Assembly (NCBI GenBank): GCA_947366645.1
Contig: CANBAX010000001.1
Coordinates: forward strand, 1 to 46,568
Direction: 5' to 3'
Source of the DNA: an uncultured Clostridia bacterium
GTDB lineage: Bacteria; Bacillota; Clostridia; Christensenellales; UBA1242
DNA: 46,568 nucleotides
Part shown: positions 1,692 through 46,568 of the stretch, piece by piece
Position numbering within the stretch: the stretch's first letter is position 1
How the letters are laid out: each line of letters opens with the position of its first letter
Position numbers and translations under genes: made by a program
Notes under the pieces: model-generated
Seen by the model: the letters and a program-made list of their open reading frames with translations, nothing else
What the model was told of the DNA's origin: nothing
Database searches by the model: none

Positions 1692-1907
1692 AGATTTCTC
1701 CGCTCCACTTCGTTTCGGTCGAAATGACAGTGTAGTAAGGACAGGTTTCGGTCGAAATGACAGTAGCTTAGCCGCTTTTTTCGCTACGCTGGATTCTTCG
1801 ACTACGCTTACGCTTCGCTCAGAATGACAAGATGGGCTTTACGCTGTGCTGGATTCTTCACTTTGCTCAGAATGACAAGGGTGGAGTGAGTTTCGGTCGA
1901 AATGAAA
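1692..1907 (+). repeat. mosaic repeat cluster R1, inside the thrS 5' UTR
   Basis: A unit 1692-1729. Short unit GGTCGAAATGACA 1750-1762. Two B/C-type units ending CTCAGAATGACA (1763-1829, 1830-1877). Degenerate short unit 1895-1907. Confidence 0.9.
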
Positions 1908-4132: not shown

Positions 4133-4229
4133 AGATTTCTCCGCTTCGGGCTATCGCCCTTCGGTCGAAATGACATAATAAAAAAATGGCTTCGGTCGAA
4201 ATGACGAGGTAAGTGAGGTCGAAATGACA
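4133..4229 (+). repeat. mosaic repeat cluster R2
   Basis: A unit 4133-4175 (inner hairpin GGGCTATCGCCC). Short units 4194-4206 (ends ATGACG) and 4217-4229. Confidence 0.9.
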
Positions 4230-4242
4230 AGATTATTTGGCA

Positions 4243-4270
4243 ACAAAAAAAGATGCTTTCGCATCTTTTT
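4243..4270 (-). terminator. rho-independent terminator downstream of the DUF1292 gene
   Basis: AAGATGC-tttc-GCATCTT flanked by an A-run and a T-run (bidirectional shape). Confidence 0.75.
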
Positions 4271-5201: not shown

Positions 5202-7727
5202 TTACTTACATTCGTACAAGTTTTTTCCCTTTCCTACCGTTGCAACAAGTGGCACTTTGAGTTTTACTACATTCTCCATTTCACGACGAAGAAGTTTTTC
5301 CACCTCTTCTTCCTCACCTTTATAGGTATCAATAATAAGCTCGTCATGAATCTGTAAAATTAACTGACTTTTTTTGCCTTTTAGTGCCTTCTGCACATTT
5401 ATCATTGCGAGTTTTATTATATCTGAGGCACTTCCCTGCATTGGCATATTCATTGCCACCCTTTGCCCAAAGCTGCGAGTTTGATATTTTGATGAGGAAA
5501 GTTCGGGTATTCTTCTAATTCGACCAAACATGGTTTTTATATAACCTGCTTTTGTCGCTTCCTCAACATTTTTTTCCATAAATTCTTTTACTTTTGGATA
5601 CCGCGAAAAATATGAATCAATATATGATTTTGCTTTTGCCCTTGAACTTTTTATATTTTGACTTAAGCCATAATCGCTTATTCCATATATTATACCAAAA
5701 TTTACCGCCTTCGCTTCCCGTCTTTGGTCGGCTGTTGGCTTACTTACCCCGAAGATTTGGCAAGCCGTCAAAGTGTGAATATCCTCGCCGCGTTTATATG
5801 CCTCGATTAAATGTTCCTCCCCAGACATATCTGCCAAAAGTCTAAGTTCAATTTGGTTATAATCGGCTGAGATTAAACTTCCGCCCTCAAACTTAGATTC
5901 AAAAATTTTGCGTAGCTCCCGCCCCTCTTCGTCACGTGTTGGTATGGTTTGAAGGTTTGGCTCGCTGCTGGAAAGCCTGCCTGTACTTGTTAATGCCTGA
6001 TTAAAGGTGGTGTGGATTATATTCCCGCCTTCCTTACACAATTTTTTATAAACATCTATATATGTGTTTTTGAGTTTTGAAAGTTTACGATGTTTTAGTA
6101 TTAAGTCCACTATTGGTATATATCTTACTTCTTCAAGCACTCCCACCGCGGTGGACTGCTTTTTATTATTCCATGTTTCTATTTTAAGTTTATCAAATAG
6201 TACACTTGCGACCTGTTTTGGCGAATTGATATTAAATTCTTCTCCAGCTATCTCATAAATTTCTTTAGAAAGTTTTTCAAGACGTATTGTATAATCACTA
6301 TCTAGGTCATCAAGTTTCCTTTCATTGATTTGAAAGCCACTTTCTTCCATTTCTACTAAGATTTCAACAAGCGGAAGTTCTATTTCCTCGTATACCTTAT
6401 TTAGCCCTTCCTCTTTAAGCGTTTCCATGTAGTTATTGTACAAATCATAATAACCTGAGGTTTCCGAAGTTATCTCCCCATTTTTTAAACCTGCACTTAT
6501 TAAATAATGCGCAAGTGATAAATCAAAATAATTTACAAATTTAATTCCAAGTTTCTTTAAATAATGCAAGTCACTCTTTGCATCAATAGTTAATTTCACT
6601 ACATTTTTATCTTCAAATATTGGTTTTAATATTTGGCAGGCCTGTTCGAGTGAAAGTTCACTACCGAACATTGTGTAATTATCATTTAGATAGTATTCTT
6701 TATCTTTATTAAAAGCAAAGGTCATCTTTTTTAAGTTATATGCAAAAGATTTCTCCGCTACGGTCGAAATGACAGATGAAGAGGTGGTCGAAATGACAAA
6801 GGAAGAAACAAGATTTTGCAAAGTCTCATGAGAAAGTTCCTCACGTTCTGCTTTTTTTATTGGCGAGATGGTTTTACCAAACAGGCTATTATTTTTTACA
6901 AGGGAGGAAAAATCCCATTTTACAAAAAATTCATGCACTCTTTCATTAAATGGAAATTTAAGTTTACACTCTTCAATATTGAAAGGAAAATCGCAGTCTG
7001 TTTTAATTGTCGCAAGTGTTTTGGAAATATCGGCGTCTTCTTTACCGTCAATTAATTTTTCTTTGAGTTTTCCATTTATTTTATCAATATTTTCATATAT
7101 TCCATTGATATCGCCATACTCTTCAAGAAGTGAATACGCCGTCTTTTCCCCTATACCTTTTACTCCTTTTATATTATCGCTTGTATCCCCCATTAGGCCT
7201 TTTAGTTCAATTACCTGACTTGGAGATAGGTTGTACTCCTCTTGTAAGACCTTTAAGTCCACCTTCTTAACCTCAGTAACACCCTTCTTTGTAAGCCAAA
7301 CAAAGGTGTTTTCATTGATAAGTTGTAGTAAATCCCTATCCCCTGAAAGAAGTATTTTTTCACAGTCACAGTTTTTGGTAAGCGTACCTATGATATCATC
7401 GGCCTCTATATTTTCATACTCGAAGGTCTTGATGTCCATAGTTTGCAACATCTCTTTTATTACCGGAAATTGAGTTATAAGTTCTGGCGGAGTAGGCTTT
7501 CTTTGACCTTTATAATCCGCATAAATCTCATTTCGAAAGGTTTTTCTTGCATGGTCAAATGCTACCGCGATATGTGTGGGTTTTTGTTCCGTTATCAGTT
7601 TTATTAATATATTTGCAAAACCAAAAACAGCACCCGATGCCTTCCCCTCATGATTTGAGAGAAATGGGAGGGCATAGAATGCTCTGTTTGCTATACTATT
7701 TCCGTCTACTATTAGAAATTTATCCAT
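5202..7727 (-). CDS. polA: DNA polymerase I
   Basis: 841 aa. 5'-3' exonuclease N-terminus (DGNSIANRAFYA, GDRDLLQL) and family A polymerase motifs (DYNQIELRLLA, RREAKAVNFGIIYG, QIHDELI). It carries an in-frame repeat copy at 6747-6798. Confidence 0.95.
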   Translation of the reverse strand: MDKFLIVDGNSIANRAFYALPFLSNHEGKASGAVFGFANILIKLITEQKPTHIAVAFDHARKTFRNEIYADYKGQRKPTPPELITQFPVIKEMLQTMDIKTFEYENIEADDIIGTLTKNCDCEKILLSGDRDLLQLINENTFVWLTKKGVTEVKKVDLKVLQEEYNLSPSQVIELKGLMGDTSDNIKGVKGIGEKTAYSLLEEYGDINGIYENIDKINGKLKEKLIDGKEDADISKTLATIKTDCDFPFNIEECKLKFPFNERVHEFFVKWDFSSLVKNNSLFGKTISPIKKAEREELSHETLQNLVSSFVISTTSSSVISTVAEKSFAYNLKKMTFAFNKDKEYYLNDNYTMFGSELSLEQACQILKPIFEDKNVVKLTIDAKSDLHYLKKLGIKFVNYFDLSLAHYLISAGLKNGEITSETSGYYDLYNNYMETLKEEGLNKVYEEIELPLVEILVEMEESGFQINERKLDDLDSDYTIRLEKLSKEIYEIAGEEFNINSPKQVASVLFDKLKIETWNNKKQSTAVGVLEEVRYIPIVDLILKHRKLSKLKNTYIDVYKKLCKEGGNIIHTTFNQALTSTGRLSSSEPNLQTIPTRDEEGRELRKIFESKFEGGSLISADYNQIELRLLADMSGEEHLIEAYKRGEDIHTLTACQIFGVSKPTADQRREAKAVNFGIIYGISDYGLSQNIKSSRAKAKSYIDSYFSRYPKVKEFMEKNVEEATKAGYIKTMFGRIRRIPELSSSKYQTRSFGQRVAMNMPMQGSASDIIKLAMINVQKALKGKKSQLILQIHDELIIDTYKGEEEEVEKLLRREMENVVKLKVPLVATVGKGKNLYECK
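6747..6798 (+). repeat. mosaic repeat R3 inside the polA coding sequence
   Basis: Minimal A unit AGATTTCTCCGCTACGGTCGAAATGACA 6747-6774 plus short unit GGTCGAAATGACA 6786-6798. It is read through as ...FVISTTSSSVISTVAEKS... in PolA. Confidence 0.9.
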
Positions 7728-11692: not shown

Positions 11693-11974
11693 AGATTTCT
11701 CCGCTCCACTGCGTTACGGTCGAAATGACATGGTAGTAAAAACGGGCGTTAGGCGAAATGACAATTCCTTAGGCACCTTTTAACGCTACGCTGGATTCTT
11801 CACTTTGTTCAGAATGACATAAATGGGGAAATAGATTTCTCCGCTCCGCCCTATCGGGCTACGGTCGAAATGACAAGGTGGGGGCGAAAGGACAGAGGAG
11901 GGAGATAGATTTCTCCGCTCTGCGACCAAAGGTCGCGCCGGTCGAAATGACAAATAAAAATAGTTGAAATGACA
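11693..11974 (+). repeat. mosaic repeat cluster R4
   Basis: A units 11693-11730, 11833-11875 and 11907-11952. B/C unit 11764-11819. Degenerate short units 11751-11763, 11883-11894 and 11962-11974. Confidence 0.9.
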
Positions 11975-11990
11975 ATAATGTTCTTTTAAC

Positions 11991-12386: not shown

Positions 12387-12465
12387 AGATTTCTCCGCTC
12401 CGCCCTATCGGGCTACGGTCGAAATGACATGGTTCGGTTGGTCGAAAGGACACCGCCTTAGGCGG
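12387..12465 (+). repeat. mosaic repeat cluster R5
   Basis: TAGGACAG (12381-12388) abuts A unit 12387-12429. Degenerate short unit 12440-12452. Hairpin CCGCCTTAGGCGG 12453-12465. Confidence 0.9.
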
Positions 12466-15068: not shown

Positions 15069-15137
15069 AGATTTCTCCGCTTTTCACCCCTAAAATGCCA
15101 AAGCATTTTTGGGGAACCCCGAACGGTCGAAATGACA
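15069..15137 (+). repeat. mosaic repeat R6: long-loop A unit
   Basis: AGATTTCTCCGC...CCCCTAAAATGC-caaa-GCATTTTTGGGG...GGTCGAAATGACA. A near-identical copy lies at 31849-31918. Confidence 0.9.
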
Positions 15138-21484: not shown

Positions 21485-21776
21485 AAAATTATTTATAGAT
21501 TTCTCCGCTTTGCGACCATAGGTCGCAGCGGTCGAAATGACAGTGCCTTAAGCGCCTAAACCCTTCGACTACGCTTCCCTCCGCTCATGATAACAAAGAT
21601 GACAATGATTATAAAAAAGATTTCTCCGCTGCGGGCTGTCGCCCTTCGGTCGAAATGACAAGTTGAAAATTTGGCTTCGGTCGAAATGACAGTTGTAGGT
21701 GAAGTCCGAAATGGCAGTGCCTTAGGCACCTTTTAACGCTACGCTGGATTCTTCACTACGTTCAGAATGACAATAT

Positions 21777-21803
21777 AAAAAAAAGTGGCTGAGCCACTTT
21801 TTT
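21777..21803. terminator. bidirectional terminator-like hairpin inside R7
   Basis: AAAAGTGGC-tga-GCCACTTTT. The arms are identical to those of the hairpin at 22020-22046. Confidence 0.6.
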
Positions 21804-22019
21804 GCTTCTTAGACGCTTTTTTTAGATTTCTCCGCTACGTCGTCACAACACAAGCTGAAACTCACATTGCAAAAGCAATGCTCGCCTGACGCATGGTTGC
21901 TCCTCTTCCCACAAATGCTGTCGCATTTGCGGGATCCCTAAACTTCGGTCGAAATGACAAGAGGAAGAAGTCGGTCGAAATGACAAAGTTATGGGCGGTC
22001 GAAATGACAATATTGGAAT

Positions 22020-22046
22020 AAAAAAAGTGGCTTTGCCACTTTTTTA
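22020..22046 (-). terminator. rho-independent terminator downstream of rpmF
   Basis: AAAAAAGTGGC-ttt-GCCACTTTTTT. Confidence 0.7.
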
Positions 22047-22087
22047 TTTTAGATTTCTCCACGTTGGTCGAAATGACATTGATATGT

Positions 22088-27388: not shown

Positions 27389-27600
27389 AGATTTCTCCGC
27401 GTCGCCCTTCGGGCTATGGTCGAAATGACAAAGGTGAGAAAAACAGATTTCTCCGCTTTGCGACCAAAGGTCGCGCCGGTCGAAATGACAAAAGTGGAGC
27501 AAAGATTTCTCCGCTACGGGCTAAGCCCTTCGGTCGAAATGACAGTGCCTTAGGCACTTTTTTACGCTTCGCTAGATTATTCACTTTGTTCAGAATGACA
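27389..27600 (+). repeat. mosaic repeat cluster R8
   Basis: A units 27389-27430, 27445-27490 and 27503-27544. B/C unit 27545-27600. Confidence 0.9.
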
Positions 27601-28641: not shown

Positions 28642-28875
28642 AGATTTCTCCACGACGCCTTCGGCTCTGGTCGAAATGACATCTCCTTAGGCGGTTTATT
28701 GTTGAAATAGATTTCTCCGCTACGGGCTACGCCCTTCGGTCGAAATGACAAAGTAAGAGAGTTTCGGTCGAAATGACAGAAGATAGGTCGGTCGAAATGA
28801 CAAAGTAAGAGAGTTTCGGTCGAAATGACAGAAGACGGGTCGGTCGAAGTTAACTAAGTGTCAGTCGAAATGACA
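28642..28875 (+). repeat. mosaic repeat cluster R9
   Basis: A units 28642-28681 (CCA/TGG variant) and 28709-28750. Short units 28766-28778, 28790-28802, 28818-28830 and 28863-28875. 52-nt tandem duplication at 28751-28802 / 28803-28854. Confidence 0.9.
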
Positions 28876-31848: not shown

Positions 31849-32239
31849 AGATTTCTCCGCTTGTTCACCCCTAAAATGCTAAAGCATTTTTGGGGAGCCC
31901 CGAATGGTCGAAATGACAGTGGTTTAGGCGGGTTTTAACAATATATGTAAAAAAGATTTCTCCGCTGCGGGCTACGCCCTTCGGTCGAAATGACATAGGT
32001 AGGGAAAAACGCCCTTCGGTCGAAATGACAAGATGGAAAAACAGAGTTCGGTCGAAATGACATAGGTGAGAGTAAGACTGCGTATGGTGGTCGAAATGAC
32101 AATAAGATAGATTTCTCCGCTACGCTATTGCTCCGGTCGAAATGACATAGGTAGGGAAAAACGCCCTTCGGTCGAAATGACAAAGGTAGGGAAAATGGAC
32201 TGCGGTTGAAATGACAAGGAAGGGCTGGTCAAAATGAAA
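31849..32239 (+). repeat. mosaic repeat cluster R11
   Basis: Long-loop A unit 31849-31918. A units 31954-31995 and 32109-32147. Short units 32018-32030, 32050-32062, 32089-32101 and 32170-32182. Degenerate units 32204-32216 and 32227-32239. A 35-nt block at 31996-32030 is repeated at 32148-32182. Confidence 0.9.
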
Positions 32240-32889: not shown

Positions 32890-32909
32890 TCCATACCCTT
32901 TGTTTTTTT

Positions 32910-32998
32910 TGGCGCAGAGAACAGGATTCGAACCTGCGGAGGCTTATCACCTCACACGCTTTCCAAGCGTGCGCCTTAAACCGCTCGGCCATCTCTGC
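32910..32998 (-). tRNA. tRNA-Ser (anticodon GGA), CCA encoded
   Basis: Minus strand: GCAGAGATGGCCGAGCGG...CACGC-TTGGAAA-GCGTG...long variable arm...GGTTCGAATCC...TCTCTGCGCCA. It has a 7-bp acceptor stem and a class II variable arm. Confidence 0.9.
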
Positions 32999-33118
32999 AT
33001 GAGCCTTTATTAGAATATCATATATTATTTTTAATTGCAACAAAATATTTATACTTTTTACTAAGCACCATGGTGCTTAGTATATGTTTTTTTAGCGTAA
33101 AAGTGCTTTAATATTATC

Positions 33119-33387: not shown

Positions 33388-33647
33388 AGATTTCTCCGCT
33401 GCGGGCTACGCCCTTCGGTCGAAATGACAAAATGAGAGAAAACAGGCTGCGGTCGAAATGACAGTGCCTTAGGCACGGTTGGAAAGAAATAGATTTCTCT
33501 ACGACGCCTTCGGCTCTGGTCCAAATGACAAAAGATGTGTTTTAGATTTCTCCGCTTTGCGACTATAGGTCGCGTCGGTCGAAATGACAGAGGCAGGGTT
33601 GGTCGAAATGACAAGGTGGGAAAAAATGGGCTGCGGTCGAAATGACA
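33388..33647 (+). repeat. mosaic repeat cluster R12
   Basis: A units 33388-33429, 33491-33530 (degenerate flanks) and 33544-33589. Short units 33451-33463, 33601-33613 and 33635-33647. Hairpin GTGCCTTAGGCAC 33464-33476. Confidence 0.9.
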
Positions 33648-37958: not shown

Positions 37959-38399
37959 ATGGAAGAAAGAAATTCTATCTACCTTAACTGCGTTTATCAA
38001 AATATTAGAACGGCGGTGCAGTCCATTGAGGATATTATCACTAAGACTGATGATGCGTCACTTAAAAAAGAACTTGCTCTTGAAGCGGACACATATCTTG
38101 CACTTCAAAGAGAATGTGAAGTATACGCGAAAAGCGAAAAGCTTGATATCAAAGATAATAATTTTATGGAAAAGGCTAGACTTTGGGGTTCTATTAATAT
38201 GTCAACCCTCATGGACAAATCTACACGGCACATTGCCCAGCTTATGCTTATTGGTACCTTTATGGGCATCTTAACCTGTTACAAAGACCAAAATGACCAC
38301 GGCGGCGAAAACAAGGAAATTGACGAAATGCTTGAAAGGCTTAAAGAATTTGAACGCAAAAATATCGAAAGATTACTACCTTTTTTAAAAGAAAACTAA
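37959..38399 (+). CDS. hypothetical protein, 146 aa
   Basis: GGAGG RBS 5 nt before ATG 37959; the ORF track starts at 37947. I recognise no family. Confidence 0.55.
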   Translation: MEERNSIYLNCVYQNIRTAVQSIEDIITKTDDASLKKELALEADTYLALQRECEVYAKSEKLDIKDNNFMEKARLWGSINMSTLMDKSTRHIAQLMLIGTFMGILTCYKDQNDHGGENKEIDEMLERLKEFERKNIERLLPFLKEN

Positions 38400-38426
38400 C
38401 AGAATATAGAGTGCAGTGAATTGCTT

Positions 38427-38492
38427 AGATTTCTCCGCTGCGGGCTAGTGCCCTTCGGTCGAAATGACAGTGTAAATGTAGTCGAAATAACA
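38427..38492 (+). repeat. mosaic repeat cluster R13
   Basis: A unit 38427-38469. Degenerate short unit AGTCGAAATAACA 38480-38492. Confidence 0.9.
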
Positions 38493-38502
38493 ATGAAGAA
38501 AA

Positions 38503-39402: not shown

Positions 39403-39607
39403 TTTACCAGTTTTAAACGATTAAATCTAATTTTAATTTTTACCGAAGAATAATTCTCTCCATAACTTTTTACTCTTTTTTCTTGCATAGATTAATATAT
39501 GCTTGTACTGATATAGTTAGGACTTGACAATTTATATAAATAAAGTATTTAAAAAAAAGACTTGACAGATTCCCCCCCCATTATAATAGTGGTATGGTGT
39601 AATAAAG

Positions 39608-39892
39608 ATGGTAAAATACTACATAAAACAAGAAGCATTAGCAGCGGTTAAAGAGAGTGGCTTTGCATTAAGTCATGCAAGTGATGAGCTTAGAAACGAC
39701 AAAGAGGTTGCTTTAAAAGCGTTTAAGCAGGATGTGAGAGCATTACGATATGTAGGTAAAGAGCTTATGTCAAATACAGCATTCTTATACCAACTTTGGA
39801 GTAAAAAATCATCGTCAAAACCACTTATCGACAACACAAATGTTAAAAAAGAAAGTATCAATATGAAAGATAATGAGAGCGAAAGCGTATAA
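39608..39892 (+). CDS. DUF4116 repeat protein (putative)
   Basis: 94 aa. ALSHASDELRNDKEVALKAFKQDVRALRYVGKEL fits the DUF4116 repeat pattern. Confidence 0.55.
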   Translation: MVKYYIKQEALAAVKESGFALSHASDELRNDKEVALKAFKQDVRALRYVGKELMSNTAFLYQLWSKKSSSKPLIDNTNVKKESINMKDNESESV

Positions 39893-39893
39893 T

Positions 39894-39921
39894 AAAAAAC
39901 ACACCGAAAGGTGTGTTTTTT
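39894..39921 (+). terminator. rho-independent terminator
   Basis: AAAAAACACACC-gaaa-GGTGTGTTTTTT. Confidence 0.85.
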
Positions 39922-40262
39922 AGATTTCTCCACTTTGCGACCATAGGTCGCGTCGGTCGAAATGACAGTGCTTTAAGCGGTTATTGTCAATTTTTTAAAA
40001 GATTTCTCTGCCCCACTATGTTCAGGTCGAAATGACAGTGGCGTGAACCACTTTTTTACGCTGACACTAGATTCTTCGACTACGCTCAGAATGACGGGAG
40101 GCGAATAGATTTCTCCGCTCCGCTATCGCTACGGTCGAAATGACAGAAAAGGGATTTGTCGAAATGACAGAAGGCGGGGTTTTGACATTTTATTAAAAAA
40201 GATTTGTCGAAATGACATAAAGTGGAAGGTCGAAATGACAAAATGGGTTGGTCGGTATGACA
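39922..40262 (+). repeat. mosaic repeat cluster R14
   Basis: A units 39922-39967, 40000-40037 and 40107-40145. B/C unit 40038-40096. Collapsed units AGATTTGTCGAAATGACA at 40152-40169 and 40200-40217. Short unit 40228-40240. Degenerate unit 40250-40262. Confidence 0.9.
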
Positions 40263-40274
40263 GCGCGTAGCCGA

Positions 40275-40943
40275 TTAGGCTATATCGTCAGATTTTATTT
40301 CCTCGACCTGCTCCCCTCTCAAGAAATCGGGAAGTTCTTCGGTAAATTCTATATCATCAACATTTCGGAAAAGGCTATCAGACTGTTCATTCTCCTCTTC
40401 CCTTATCACTGTGATACGCTGAAGGAGCTCTTCATAATCAGGCAGGTCGGCAAGGTTTGTGAGATTAAACCTCTTTAAGAAGTTTTCAGTAGTGCCAAAC
40501 ATAAGTGGTTTACCCACTGCATCTTTACGCCCTACCACCTCTATCATATCTTGGTCGACAAGTACTTGTACCGCATAGTCTGCGTTTACTCGGCGGATAT
40601 CCTCTATCTCAAGTTTAGTTATTGGCTGTTTATACGCCACTATCGCGAGTGTTTCAAGAGCGGCACGAGTAAGGGACTTTTCGCGAATTGGATTAAGAAC
40701 ATCTGAGATATAATCCGCAAAATTTGGATTTGAGGCAAGTTGTACCTTATTTTTATAGGTAATCACATGTATACCATTTTCCCCTGTATATACTTGTTTA
40801 AGTTCCTCTATTGCTTTATCAACCTCTTTCTCACTTACCCCTAATTTCTCCGCAATAAATGACTTCTCTATGCCATCACCTGACACGAAAAGTACGGAAA
40901 GTACAATATTTTTTAAGTTCATAACTGTATCTATACTACTCAT
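40275..40943 (-). CDS. scpB: segregation and condensation protein B
   Basis: VLFVSGDGI...LTRAALETLAIVAYKQPITKLEIEDIRRVNADYAVQVL...GKPLMFGTTENFLKRF. Confidence 0.9.
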   Translation of the reverse strand: MSSIDTVMNLKNIVLSVLFVSGDGIEKSFIAEKLGVSEKEVDKAIEELKQVYTGENGIHVITYKNKVQLASNPNFADYISDVLNPIREKSLTRAALETLAIVAYKQPITKLEIEDIRRVNADYAVQVLVDQDMIEVVGRKDAVGKPLMFGTTENFLKRFNLTNLADLPDYEELLQRITVIREEENEQSDSLFRNVDDIEFTEELPDFLRGEQVEEIKSDDIA

Positions 40944-41823: not shown

Positions 41824-42093
41824 AGATTTCTCCGCGACGCCTTCGGCTCTGGTCGAAATGACAGTGTGAGTGAATAGATTTCTCCGCTACGGGCTATTGC
41901 CCTTCGGTCGAAATGACATAGGTTAGAAAGTATGTTCGGTCGAAATGACAAAAGGTAAGAATATAGTTTTAGTAGAAATGACATAATCCGATTTAATAGA
42001 TTTCTCCGCTCTGCGACCAAAGGTCGCGTCGGTCTAAATGACAATATAACTTTGTAAGTAAGGTTAAAATGACAGTGCTTTAGGCGGTTTTTT
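41824..42093 (+). repeat. mosaic repeat cluster R15
   Basis: A units 41824-41863, 41876-41918 and 41998-42043. Short unit 41938-41950. Degenerate units 41981-41993 and 42062-42074. Hairpin GTGCTTTAGGCGG plus T-run 42075-42093. Confidence 0.9.
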
Positions 42094-46291: not shown

Positions 46292-46568
46292 AAATTTCTC
46301 CACTGCGGTCGAAATGACAAGGTTAGGGAATAGATTTCTCCGCTTCGGGCTATCGCCCTTCGGTCGAAATGACAAAAAGGGTGCTTATCGAAATGACAGT
46401 GTAAGGGCGGTTGATATGACACCGCCTTAGGCGGTTTTTGACAATTTTTTAAAAGATTTCTCCGCGACGCCTACGGCTCTGGTCGAAATGACAAAGTGGG
46501 AAAAACGAGCTCTGGTCGAAATGACAAGGTTAGGGAATAGATTTCTCCGCTTCGGGCTATCGCCCTTC
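46292..46568 (+). repeat. mosaic repeat cluster R16, continuing past the window end
   Basis: A units 46292-46319 (minimal), 46332-46374, 46454-46493 and 46539-46568 (cut by the window edge). Short unit 46514-46526. Degenerate units 46386-46398 and 46409-46421. Hairpin CCGCCTTAGGCGG 46422-46434. A 43-nt block at 46319-46361 is repeated at 46526-46568. Confidence 0.9.

Follow-up and report, generated by a model that had tools for sequence, protein, structure and literature searches.

The 46,568-nt contig CANBAX010000001.1 of an uncultured Clostridia bacterium, which was analysed whole and is called the window below (46.5 kb, about 37% GC), contains many copies of a short hairpin repeat, here named the A unit. 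We consider it probable (roughly 0.6) that the A unit is a repetitive extragenic palindrome (REP) of the CGTC/TGTC-tagged kind, belonging to the class of Ssn-related motifs (SRM), and that its minus strand is read by a GIY-YIG nuclease of the Ssn type. Instead of representing a novel sort of element, the A unit falls within the CGTC/TGTC-REP and SRM class as a divergent variant, strand-polar and array-forming, and this class had not previously been described in the host group of the window. REPs of the CGTC type have been catalogued since 2013 with no known partner protein, and the link between Ssn proteins and their target, NTS, dates only from 2025 and concerns mainly Gram-negative bacteria. 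The evidence comes from the anatomy of the copies in the window, the covariation of their stems, an asymmetry between the two strands, the occurrence of the motif class beside GIY-YIG genes of other bacteria, and the turnover of the units between related genomes.

Abundance and anatomy of the A unit

In its plus strand form the A unit reads (T)A-GATTTCTCC-[apical]-GGTCGAAATGAC-A, and 33 full copies were extracted from the window. The 3' arm GGTCGAAATGAC, with at most one mismatch, occurs 59 times, always on the plus strand (59/59), against 0.15 copies expected from shuffled sequences, in which the maximum was 1; GATTTCTCC is likewise enriched. The A units and the half-sites that accompany them are grouped in 15 clusters over the 46.5 kb, all but one of them intergenic, giving a density of about one unit or half-site per 0.7 kb. 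The genes of the window are core chromosomal genes, namely polA, ruvX, a gene for an mgsA-like ATPase, a sigma factor gene, ftsY, smc, rnc and plsX, together with ackA, pta, an RNase H-HIT fusion, RNase P RNA and one tRNA. Most of them lie on the minus strand, and the GC skew of the plus strand is negative.

The anatomy is best read on the minus strand, which we call the tag strand: T-GTC / AT-TTC / GA / CCG-apical-CGG / A / GAA-AT / C-T-A, as exemplified by TGTCATTTCGACCGTAGCGGAGAAATCT (the unit class may also be written TGTCATTTCGACC...GGAGAAATC). An unpaired T-GTC is followed by a stem made of A-T, T-A and TTC/GAA, by a GA/A internal loop, a second stem CCG/CGG and the apical module; after the palindrome come a C and then T-A. 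Hardly any variation is seen among the 33 copies in GATTTCT, in TCGAAATGAC or in the A on either flank, and this includes the unpaired bases. The 3' GAC (GTC on the tag strand), with the flanking A on each side, is present in 33/33 units, and 32/33 have the G of GAT, corresponding on the tag strand to the C that follows the palindrome; on that strand the base following this C is T in all 33, and the next one is A in 22.

While these basal parts stay invariant, the apical part spans everything from 3-nt loops to an insert of about 100 nt; most units are 26-44 nt long and three copies reach 67-134 nt. Of the two focal units, the first (minus strand, 28643..28681) is GATTTCTCC-ACGACGCCTTCGGCTCT-GGTCGAAATGAC at 28643-28680, with closing CCA...TGG; on the tag strand it reads TGTC-ATTTC-GA-CCA..GAGCCGAAGGCGTCG..TGG-A-GAAAT-C, and its closing pair is A-T. 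The second (minus strand, 28710..28750) is GATTTCTCC-GCTACGGGCTACGCCCTTC-GGTCGAAATGAC at 28710-28749, with closing CCG...CGG, a GGGC/GCCC apical hairpin and a G-C closing pair. They are followed at 28751..28874, also on the minus strand, by an array of tag-side half-sites, or B units, each made of a spacer and xCGGTCGAAATGACA, with a 52-nt higher-order duplication within.

The apical versions are discrete. GGGC-loop-GCCC was found at 4134, 21619, 28710, 31955, 33389, 38428, 41877 and 46333, and also at 27504; GCCC-TATC-GGGC at 11834 and 12388; GCGACC-AWA-GGTCGC at 11908, 21498, 27446, 33545, 39923 and 41999; GACGCC-TWC-GGCTC at 28643, 33492, 41825 and 46455; a 34-nt apical hairpin at 15070 and 31850; and minimal units with no inner hairpin at 6748, 22052 and 46293. 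A previous reading of this DNA from its letters alone (the sequence-only reading) had listed these versions, and every one was recovered at its place, with the start one base further on, that reading having begun at the invariant A. It had also stated that all versions still pair, which is true of nearly all, and that the copy at 33491-33530 closes with CCA...TGG; this unit, which starts at 33492, actually reads CTA...TGG, and its 3' arm is GGTCCAAATGAC. Unit 21619 carries GGGCTGTCGCCC. Additional versions are GCTCCACTKCGTTWCGG at 1693 and 11694, with a diverged copy GCCCCACTATGTTCAGG at 40001, GCTMCGCTATYGCTMCGG at 32110 and 40108, and the unit at 21825-21958 with its apical insert of about 100 nt.

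Covariation of the stems

The predominant fold in the window is.(((((.(((..apical..)))..))))).... Taken singly and as DNA, the hairpins have a modest stability (z of -0.8 to -1.8, and -3.9 for the long hairpin), and since they are thermodynamically unremarkable the evidence for structure rests on the comparison of copies. An alignment was built from 30 unique units of the lineage, taken from the window and from L028, L119, L124 and L125; the nearest relatives of the window are uncultured Clostridia-like metagenome-assembled genomes (MAGs). RNAalifold on the minus strand gave ...(((((..(((..(((...)))....))).)))))., in which the three aligned pairs of the inner helix were paired in 100% of the sequences, with double-sided changes in 4, 9 and 8 of the 30 units; these are counts of sequences and not of events, and they fall into only about five discrete classes. 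The inner-helix covariation score was 0.199, as compared to 0.066 +/- 0.012 in shuffled alignments (0/500 as high) and to 0.046 or less with slid partners.

The basal helix is constant inside the A family and variable across a wider family, whose arm pairs were anchored solely on GAT-NNN-T[CT] and T[CT]-NNN-ATGAC, complementarity not being required. At the three free positions, 532 of 615 arm pairs were fully Watson-Crick. When neither arm was of the ascertained type TTC/GAA, this was still the case for 132/183, in 16 triplet types (TCC/GGA, CTC/GAG, TCT/AGA, CCC/GGG, CCT/AGG and TGC/GCA among them), against an average of 16.7 and at most 29 under permutation. Among 150 distinct constructs aligned by their arms only, the three variable basal pairs showed 36, 50 and 30 double changes, and the covariation score was 0.310 versus 0.138 (0/500). 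The TCT/AGA basal variant is present in the window itself, and L124 and L125 have a CCC/GGG variant whose B units bear the matching GGG arm.

Both the apical hairpin and the basal stem covary, and the earlier inference that the pairing is under selection holds. The idea that the structure of the unit is conserved and its sequence is not can thus be kept in its first part only. Pairing is maintained across versions, with an excess of covariation over the shuffled null; the second part is wrong for the basal part of the unit, because GATTTCT, TCGAAATGAC and the flanking A's are invariant and the same 21 bases are found in many phyla. The proposed compensation at the closing pair, from CCG..CGG to CCA..TGG, has no statistical support either: in 153 unique units of other genomes, pair 3 was A.C in 71, G-C in 42, A-T in 11, C-G in 9 and G.T in 3, and the A-T association gave a Fisher p = 0.38.

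What distinguishes the versions is the swapping of cassettes and the permuted order of two sub-repeats of 7-8 nt, X = TCGGGCTA and Y = TCGCCCT, and not stepwise compensatory substitution. The hairpin that had been described as arm-swapped is in fact such a permutation, the order being X-Y in unit 4134 (GCT-[TCGGGCTA]-[TCGCCCT]-TCGG) and Y-X in units 27390 (GCG-[TCGCCCT]-[TCGGGCTA]-TGG) and 11834 (GCT-[CCGCCCTA]-[TCGGGCTA]-CGG).

Strand of folding and strand polarity

Wobble pairs had been said not to identify the functional strand, and inside the window they indeed do not (4 versus 1). Across other genomes, however, units wobble-compatible on one strand only are distributed very unevenly, 72 on the minus strand versus 5 on the plus strand (p = 3e-16). 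When both strands were folded, the minus strand was the more stable in 149/161 units with DNA parameters and in 135/161 with RNA parameters, a gap that is partly compositional, as shuffled apical parts show the same. From the other genomes the folded strand can be identified, and it is in all likelihood the minus strand.

In the window, L028, L119 and L123-L125 all units lie on one strand, and in this lineage the tag strand is the G-rich strand bearing most genes, which is the minus strand of the window. By inference, it would be the template of the lagging strand, the strand most often single-stranded in replication. In other genomes both orientations are usual, with 50 mixed loci versus 11 single-strand ones, and head-to-head pairs are common; in other phyla there is a weak bias with respect to flanking unidirectional genes (26 to 16) and to GC skew (75 to 61). 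Among the matches listed by a metagenome scan for loci of the lineage, most were unrelated environmental genomes with single units.

Occurrence in other genomes

An exact scan for GATTTCTCC-N5-35-GGTCGAAATGAC, with one genome per species, found at least 118 stretches, against roughly 8 expected by our own estimate for the whole collection. Among the matches listed are Clostridia, Bacteroidales, Pedobacter, Planctomycetota, Chloroflexota, Patescibacteria, Verrucomicrobia, Alphaproteobacteria, Bifidobacterium and others, and it is the same 21 conserved bases that recur across many phyla among these matches, in genome as well as metagenome scans. Collections of plasmids and phages gave no meaningful matches, and the units are therefore taken to be chromosomal. 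No conserved neighbouring gene was found in the 118 loci by all-against-all BLAST of open reading frames (ORFs) of at least 90 aa.

The covariance models of Rfam 15 found nothing on the units even at E <= 10, and at the gathering threshold they found only RNase P RNA and one tRNA in the window. A literature search by the sequence string of the unit returned unrelated primers only. An array of clustered regularly interspaced short palindromic repeats was rejected, as the core is of 13-14 nt, the spacers are of 10-22 nt and partly repeated, and the copies are dispersed over 15 sites; the repeats of a type III toxin-antitoxin RNA were ruled out by the anatomy and by the same dispersal. A self-cleaving ribozyme with a hammerhead-like core, considered on account of CGAAA, was discarded in view of the lack of CUGANGA and of any Rfam match.

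An identical 34-mer, GATTTCTCCACTCGCTTCGCTCGGTCGAAATGAC, is shared by MAGs of different phyla (L008, L023, L053, L064 of the Bacteroidales and L078 of the Sedimentisphaerales). Horizontal spread, very strong constraint or mis-binning are possible explanations.

Association with GIY-YIG genes

In the loci fetched by the DNA pattern alone, the small ORFs were searched by motif. Four GIY-YIG ORFs were found, three of the four within 200 nt of a unit (p about 7e-4), each of the four encoding a single-domain PF01541 protein (94-100 aa). Four further independent contexts came from homologues of the L148 protein. This brings to six the independent contexts with 95-aa single-domain GIY-YIG genes (PF01541): L145, L148, L247, L248, the L249-253 group and L254. 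In all six, a unit of the TGTCATTTCGA[CG]C...GAGAAATC type lies about 15-50 nt upstream on the gene's own strand, as in L254 (TGTCATTTCGACCGAGCCGAAGGCGAGTGGAGAAATC), with L248 having the variant GTCGTTTCGAGC; in 4/6 contexts this unit is exactly the A class of the window. Moreover, in most contexts an oppositely oriented hairpin unit of the wider family stands 25-35 nt downstream. In L148 an A-class unit is present on both sides of the gene, both on the gene's strand, and adjoins B-type half-site arrays. As the tag-strand unit is upstream in 6/6 contexts, the motif class of the A unit would be an Ssn-type motif in the architectural sense.

The contigs with the 95-aa GIY-YIG genes (P0241-P0360) are mostly very short, 0.5-3 kb, which fits assembly breaks at flanking repeats. 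Genes of this kind, including any in the lineage of the window, may be systematically missing from MAGs, in which the repeats give rise to both spurious ORFs and assembly breaks.

Relation to known repeats

An oriented subset of the Neisseria repeat dRS3 was recently redefined as NTS, CGTCATTCCCGCGMAVGCGGGAATCYRG, the target of SsnA, a 94-aa single-domain GIY-YIG protein that binds NTS as single-stranded DNA only, on that strand only and not as RNA, and cuts a few bases upstream (Chenal et al. 2025, PMC11893778). Binding depends critically on the C that follows the palindrome, and cutting on the three bases that precede it; the identity of the loop is irrelevant in vitro, where it can be deleted or extended and where the two halves work in trans, and altering the palindrome with the hairpin kept abolishes activity (PMC11893778). 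The ssn genes are typically flanked by NTS-like motifs (PMC11893778).

Several of these traits are shared by the A unit. It has an oriented unpaired tag of the HGTC type 5' of a palindrome starting AT (T-GTC-AT in 33/33) and a C right after the palindrome, then Y-R; its copies are clustered and mostly intergenic, as are those of NTS and SRM, which number in the hundreds; and in other bacteria its motif class flanks 95-aa single-domain GIY-YIG genes in an NTS-gene-NTS layout. The apical part of natural A units is dispensable or extended, like the NTS loop in vitro, and orthologous units differ in the apical part only. Natural copies thus parallel the engineered NTS constructs, in which the loop was replaced or extended and the halves were supplied in trans. 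The A unit differs from NTS and SRM in the GA/A interruption of its stem, in apical modules of up to about 100 nt, in its one-strand polarity, in the tag-side half-site arrays and in its Clostridia-like host. The motif class is broader than the published search pattern captures.

Neisseria dRS3, like RPE-4 and RPE-6 of Rickettsia, is a member of the superfamily of CGTC-tagged REPs, whose reported hosts are Proteobacteria, Chlorobi, Bacteroidetes, Spirochaetes and Thermotogae (Di Nocera et al. 2013, PMC3733652). These REPs have an unpaired CGTC tag (often TGTC, also CCTC), a stem that nearly always begins with A-T and T-A, and an unpaired tail of 3 nt; they are mostly intergenic and near gene 3' ends, with occasional in-frame copies in repair and replication genes including that for DNA polymerase I (PMC3733652). 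They have never been seen beside Y1 transposase genes, and no tyrosine transposase is associated with them (PMC3733652). The A unit agrees with them in its TGTC tag, the first stem pairs A-T and T-A, the short tail, the intergenic location and even an in-frame copy in polA. In contrast to their uninterrupted stem of 8-9 bp with a loop of 4-5 nt, its stem is split into 5 bp and 3 bp by GA/A, and short loops (about 3 nt in the predicted fold) occur only in minimal units, most copies having a nested hairpin. CGTC-REPs are mostly head-to-head dimers and rarely clustered, whereas the units of the window are head-to-tail only, with 59/59 on one strand and in 15 clusters. Variable apical modules and a Firmicutes-type genome are further differences.

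With the GTAG REPs and the REPIN-RAYT systems the A unit shares the character of short tagged extragenic hairpins that act as single-stranded DNA, are clustered, are long-lived in a lineage and turn over between relatives. Its tag is TGTC and not GT[AG]G, and REPINs are inverted doublets whose partner is a Y1 HUH transposase. A different parallel is offered by the attC sites of integrons, which are recognised as a folded single strand and in which the basal boxes covary, unpaired bases matter, the variable terminal structure is free and polarity is strict. The likeness lies only in how the site works, since the A unit has no R''/R' core sites (RYYYAAC/GTTRRRY), gene cassettes or integrase, and housekeeping genes lie between the clusters.

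Proposed mechanism

We propose that the minus strand folds when it is single-stranded DNA, and that a small single-domain GIY-YIG nuclease of the Ssn type would then recognise the GTC tag together with the basal stem and the C that follows it, placing its cut a few bases 5' of the tag. The apical part would need only to pair with itself or to keep clear; under so little demand, it could vary freely, expand through nested insertion and be swapped between copies. The B units would be tag-side halves produced by local partial duplication, in which the tag and the 5' arm are joined to a short stretch taken from the B unit's own A unit, and each of them could pair in turn with the single distal arm. 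That an Ssn-type protein acts in this way in the organism of the window is suggested by analogy with the systems described above. Cleavage followed by repair might be the source of the arrays, and a link to replication is conceivable.

A more ambitious version of this scheme, which we hold to be rather improbable, is a replication-coupled, self-expanding hairpin system of the Ssn type that operates in a Clostridia-like lineage with no HUH transposase. If single-strand cuts were made repeatedly in the lagging-strand template, 5' of the tag, and were then processed by repair or template switching, half-site arrays, cassette swaps and new copies with short target duplications would result, and the copies seeded in this manner would include in-frame ones in genes. 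If this were true, pairs of GIY-YIG genes and SRM would constitute a distinct class of strand-polar mobile DNA, and the transposase-free spread of CGTC-type REPs would be explained. In any case, the one-strand arrays and the polA copy provide a concrete system in which to study how such repeats multiply and any tie to replication.

Some points weigh against an Ssn-type nuclease as the reader of the A unit. A local search with hidden Markov models, covering the window and some 75 kb of non-redundant sequence from three related genomes, found no GIY-YIG ORF. The GIY-YIG proteins of the six contexts in other bacteria are PF01541 proteins whose place in CDD cd10448 (Ssn) is only putative, and the Ssn homologues described so far are mostly Gram-negative (PMC11893778). 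The SRM string HGTCWYN(0-2)YYVSBRHN(0-5)WNVSBRGN(0-2)RNCYNB, which NTS matches, had 0 matches in the window on either strand, and 1 when a loop of 120 nt was allowed; the mismatch is due to the GA/A internal loop and the long apical parts. It would also seem harmful for an Ssn protein to cut thousands of sites of the lagging-strand template in every replication round, a burden for which the proposed mechanism does not account. To our knowledge, GIY-YIG nucleases do not carry out strand transfer, so that alone they do not explain new copies. Finally, since most genes also have the tag strand as their sense strand, transcription could equally well set the polarity.

Alternative explanations

This last point leads to an action of the units as RNA, transcribed with the mainly minus-strand genes, in which the hairpins would stabilise, process or terminate mRNAs, as has frequently been suggested for REPs. 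Not only in the window but also in L028 and L123-L125, most genes have the tag strand as their sense strand; G.U-compatible states are strongly enriched on it, the polA copy is certainly transcribed, and in other phyla the units favour convergent intergenic regions over divergent ones by 24 to 10. According to Di Nocera et al., G-T pairs and the context of neighbouring genes speak for transcription of many REPs (PMC3733652). However, most clusters of the window lie beyond intrinsic terminator-like hairpins, and the polarity is the same in divergent (28643-28874) and convergent (27390, 38428, 39923) intergenic regions, while in other genomes the orientation with respect to flanking unidirectional genes is only 26 to 16 and no Rfam family matches. 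Moreover, the invariant unpaired flanks and the association with GIY-YIG genes suggest a DNA-binding partner, and SsnA does not bind RNA (PMC11893778). Taking both sides into account, we regard a function as RNA as unlikely.

It is also doubtful that the repeats are orphans left over from an ancient invasion, with no present-day protein partner in the lineage and changing only by replication slippage, tandem duplication and gene conversion. In favour of this, no partner gene was found in the sequence examined (the window and about 75 kb of relatives), most clusters are missing from the sister genome (L119/L123), through loss or because they were never there, and the differences in copy number and cassettes between near-identical genomes could be produced by ordinary slippage or conversion. 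Nevertheless, across 33 copies neither the basal arms nor the unpaired flanks vary, despite the divergence of the apical parts, which argues for ongoing selection or recent sequence-specific copying, and some insertions seem to be recent, such as the in-frame copy in polA and a 97-nt insertion with a repeat resembling a target duplication.

Movement of REP- or REPIN-like elements on the lagging-strand template by a Y1 HUH transposase (RAYT or the TnpA of IS200/IS605) is very unlikely: the uniform polarity on the inferred lagging-strand template recalls IS608-type single-strand transposition (PMC6006769), and composites with two similar direct hairpins (the A type, then TCT/AGA or CCC/GGG) resemble the left and right ends of IS200/IS605, but there is no GT[AG]G tag, REPs of the CGTC type have never been seen beside Y1 transposase genes (PMC3733652), no conserved neighbour gene was found in the 118 loci and no Y1 domain in the 29 window proteins scanned, the 11-nt direct repeat around one insertion is not produced by IS200/IS605, and the motif class flanks GIY-YIG genes instead.

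Half-site arrays and turnover between relatives

A B unit consists of a purine-rich spacer of 10-22 nt and xCGGTCGAAATGACA, and usually comes after A units. B units match the last 6-10 bases before the arm of their own A unit, which indicates local partial duplication. Tandem amplification is restricted to this tag-side half: in the window there are 25 consecutive pairs of it versus 0 for the other arm, and in other genomes 48 versus about 3.5 expected, as compared to 26 versus about 25 expected for the other arm. Tag-side arrays were observed in 27/237 loci of unrelated bacteria (L013, L053, L062, L076, L083, L148 and others). Such half-site arrays are described in neither of the reports on CGTC-REPs and NTS (PMC3733652, PMC11893778).

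The units turn over between close relatives. L124 and L125 have an identical PolA protein, yet one orthologous unit differs by a whole apical cassette, GCGACGCCTACGGCTTTGG in L124 and GCTCCACTGCGTTTCGG in L125, between identical flanks, so that the change must be recent and rapid; two half-site arrays also differ by one copy between them (compared segments: L124 3002-3300 vs L125 2355-2651, and L124 21782-22087 vs L125 21985-22319). Past the RNase P terminator, an apical hairpin and a B unit of the window correspond to a minimal unit in L125, and at site 27390 the three different units of the window correspond to a single minimal unit in L119. The clusters at 1693, 11694, 28643, 31850, 38428 and 39923 are absent or vestigial in relatives at 82-87% protein identity.

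The 97-nt insertion at 38400-38496, after a stop codon at 38399, has a flanking 11-nt direct repeat, AAGAAAACTAA. Upstream of the RNase P RNA, the cluster at 11694-11990 seemingly lies between two copies of the -35 region of its promoter (TTGCAT.. on the left and TTGACT on the right). The repeats flanking both look like target duplications of variable length.

The copy inside polA (5202-7727, minus strand) is a minimal A unit with one B unit at 6748..6797, in frame, which encodes ..VISTTSSSVISTVAEKS.. in the linker that joins the 5'-nuclease domain to the 3'-5' exonuclease-like domain. This in-frame insertion is missing from 7/7 aligned relatives, one of them at 86% identity. The segment measures 54 nt in the window versus 12 nt in the closest relative, and the linker is longer by 14 residues than in six of the seven relatives and by 10 than in the seventh.

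Large apical inserts are found in three A units: the insert of about 100 nt at 21825-21958, with two internal hairpins, and the 34-nt hairpins at 15070-15136 and 31850-31917. The loop of the A unit may be a favoured site of nested insertion.

Other clusters of the window

The remaining clusters all have the tag on the minus strand, and most of them lie just beyond intrinsic terminator-like hairpins, i.e. outside transcription units. At 1693..1906 an A unit, a B unit, a terminator-like hairpin and two TCT/AGA-type units occupy a site that is empty in L123 and L125. The A unit of 4134..4228, with sub-repeats X-Y and two B units, stands beyond the terminator-like hairpin 4247-4270. Two clusters surround the RNase P RNA gene. 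One, at 11694..11973, has three A units, one TCT/AGA unit and half-sites directly upstream of its promoter and is absent in L123 and L125; the other, at 12388..12451, has an A unit (sub-repeats Y-X) and a degenerate B unit just past its terminator, between two convergent terminator-like hairpins, and its ortholog in L125 is the minimal unit mentioned above. The A unit with a 34-nt apical hairpin at 15070..15136 is beyond the terminator-like hairpin of the ftsY-like gene.

Five A-type units with half-site arrays and terminator-like hairpins between them extend over 21498..22077, including the unit 21825-21958, a TCT/AGA unit and the minimal CCA..TGG unit at 22052. The cluster at 27390..27599 comprises three A units with three apical versions, then a terminator-like hairpin and a TCT/AGA-related unit (GATTATTC...TTCAGAATGAC), in place of the single minimal unit of L119. 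Three A units and six half-sites, one of them degenerate (GGTTGAAATGAC), are present at 31850..32215, where L119 has a degenerate remnant only, and in the cluster at 33389..33646 the first A unit and the first B unit are conserved in L119, the other units being found in the window only.

The A unit and degenerate half-site of 38428..38492 lie inside the 97-nt insertion and are absent in L119. At 39923..40239, A units, a TCT/AGA unit and half-sites are located downstream of an ORF for a DUF4116 protein. The three A units and half-sites at 41825..42073 are atypical, the exception to the rule above, as they come before a terminator-like hairpin (41803-41775). The last cluster, 46293..46568, extends past the contig end.

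The cluster at 39923 belongs to a 775-bp segment, 39500-40275, that is entirely lacking in the syntenic L119 and consists of the 94-aa DUF4116 ORF (39608-39892) and the repeat cluster. This ORF has its own promoter-like site and terminator. The tRNA gene at 32903-32999 is 99% identical in L119 but has the opposite orientation with respect to its syntenic neighbours, which by sequence comparison appears to be a small local inversion adjoining repeat clusters.

A composite module recurs in the window, formed by an A unit, half-sites, a plus strand terminator-like hairpin (GTGCCTTAGGCAC then T's) and, after about 15 nt, a second hairpin GATTCTTC..TCAGAATGACA; it was found at 21708-21775, 11770-11808, 27544-27599, 40037-40097 and 1765-1880. 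The second hairpin has a covarying stem and is GATCCCTCC..GGTCGGGATGACA in L124 and L125. The spacers that follow ATGACA are purine-rich (AAGGTGAGAAAAACA, ATAGGTAGGGAAAAA), for instance at 27430-27445, 32030-32045 and 46319-46332, and often contain GAGAAA or GGGAAA, able to pair with the 5' arm TTTCTC of the neighbouring unit. These spacers may be relics of inverted partners or alternative pairing partners.

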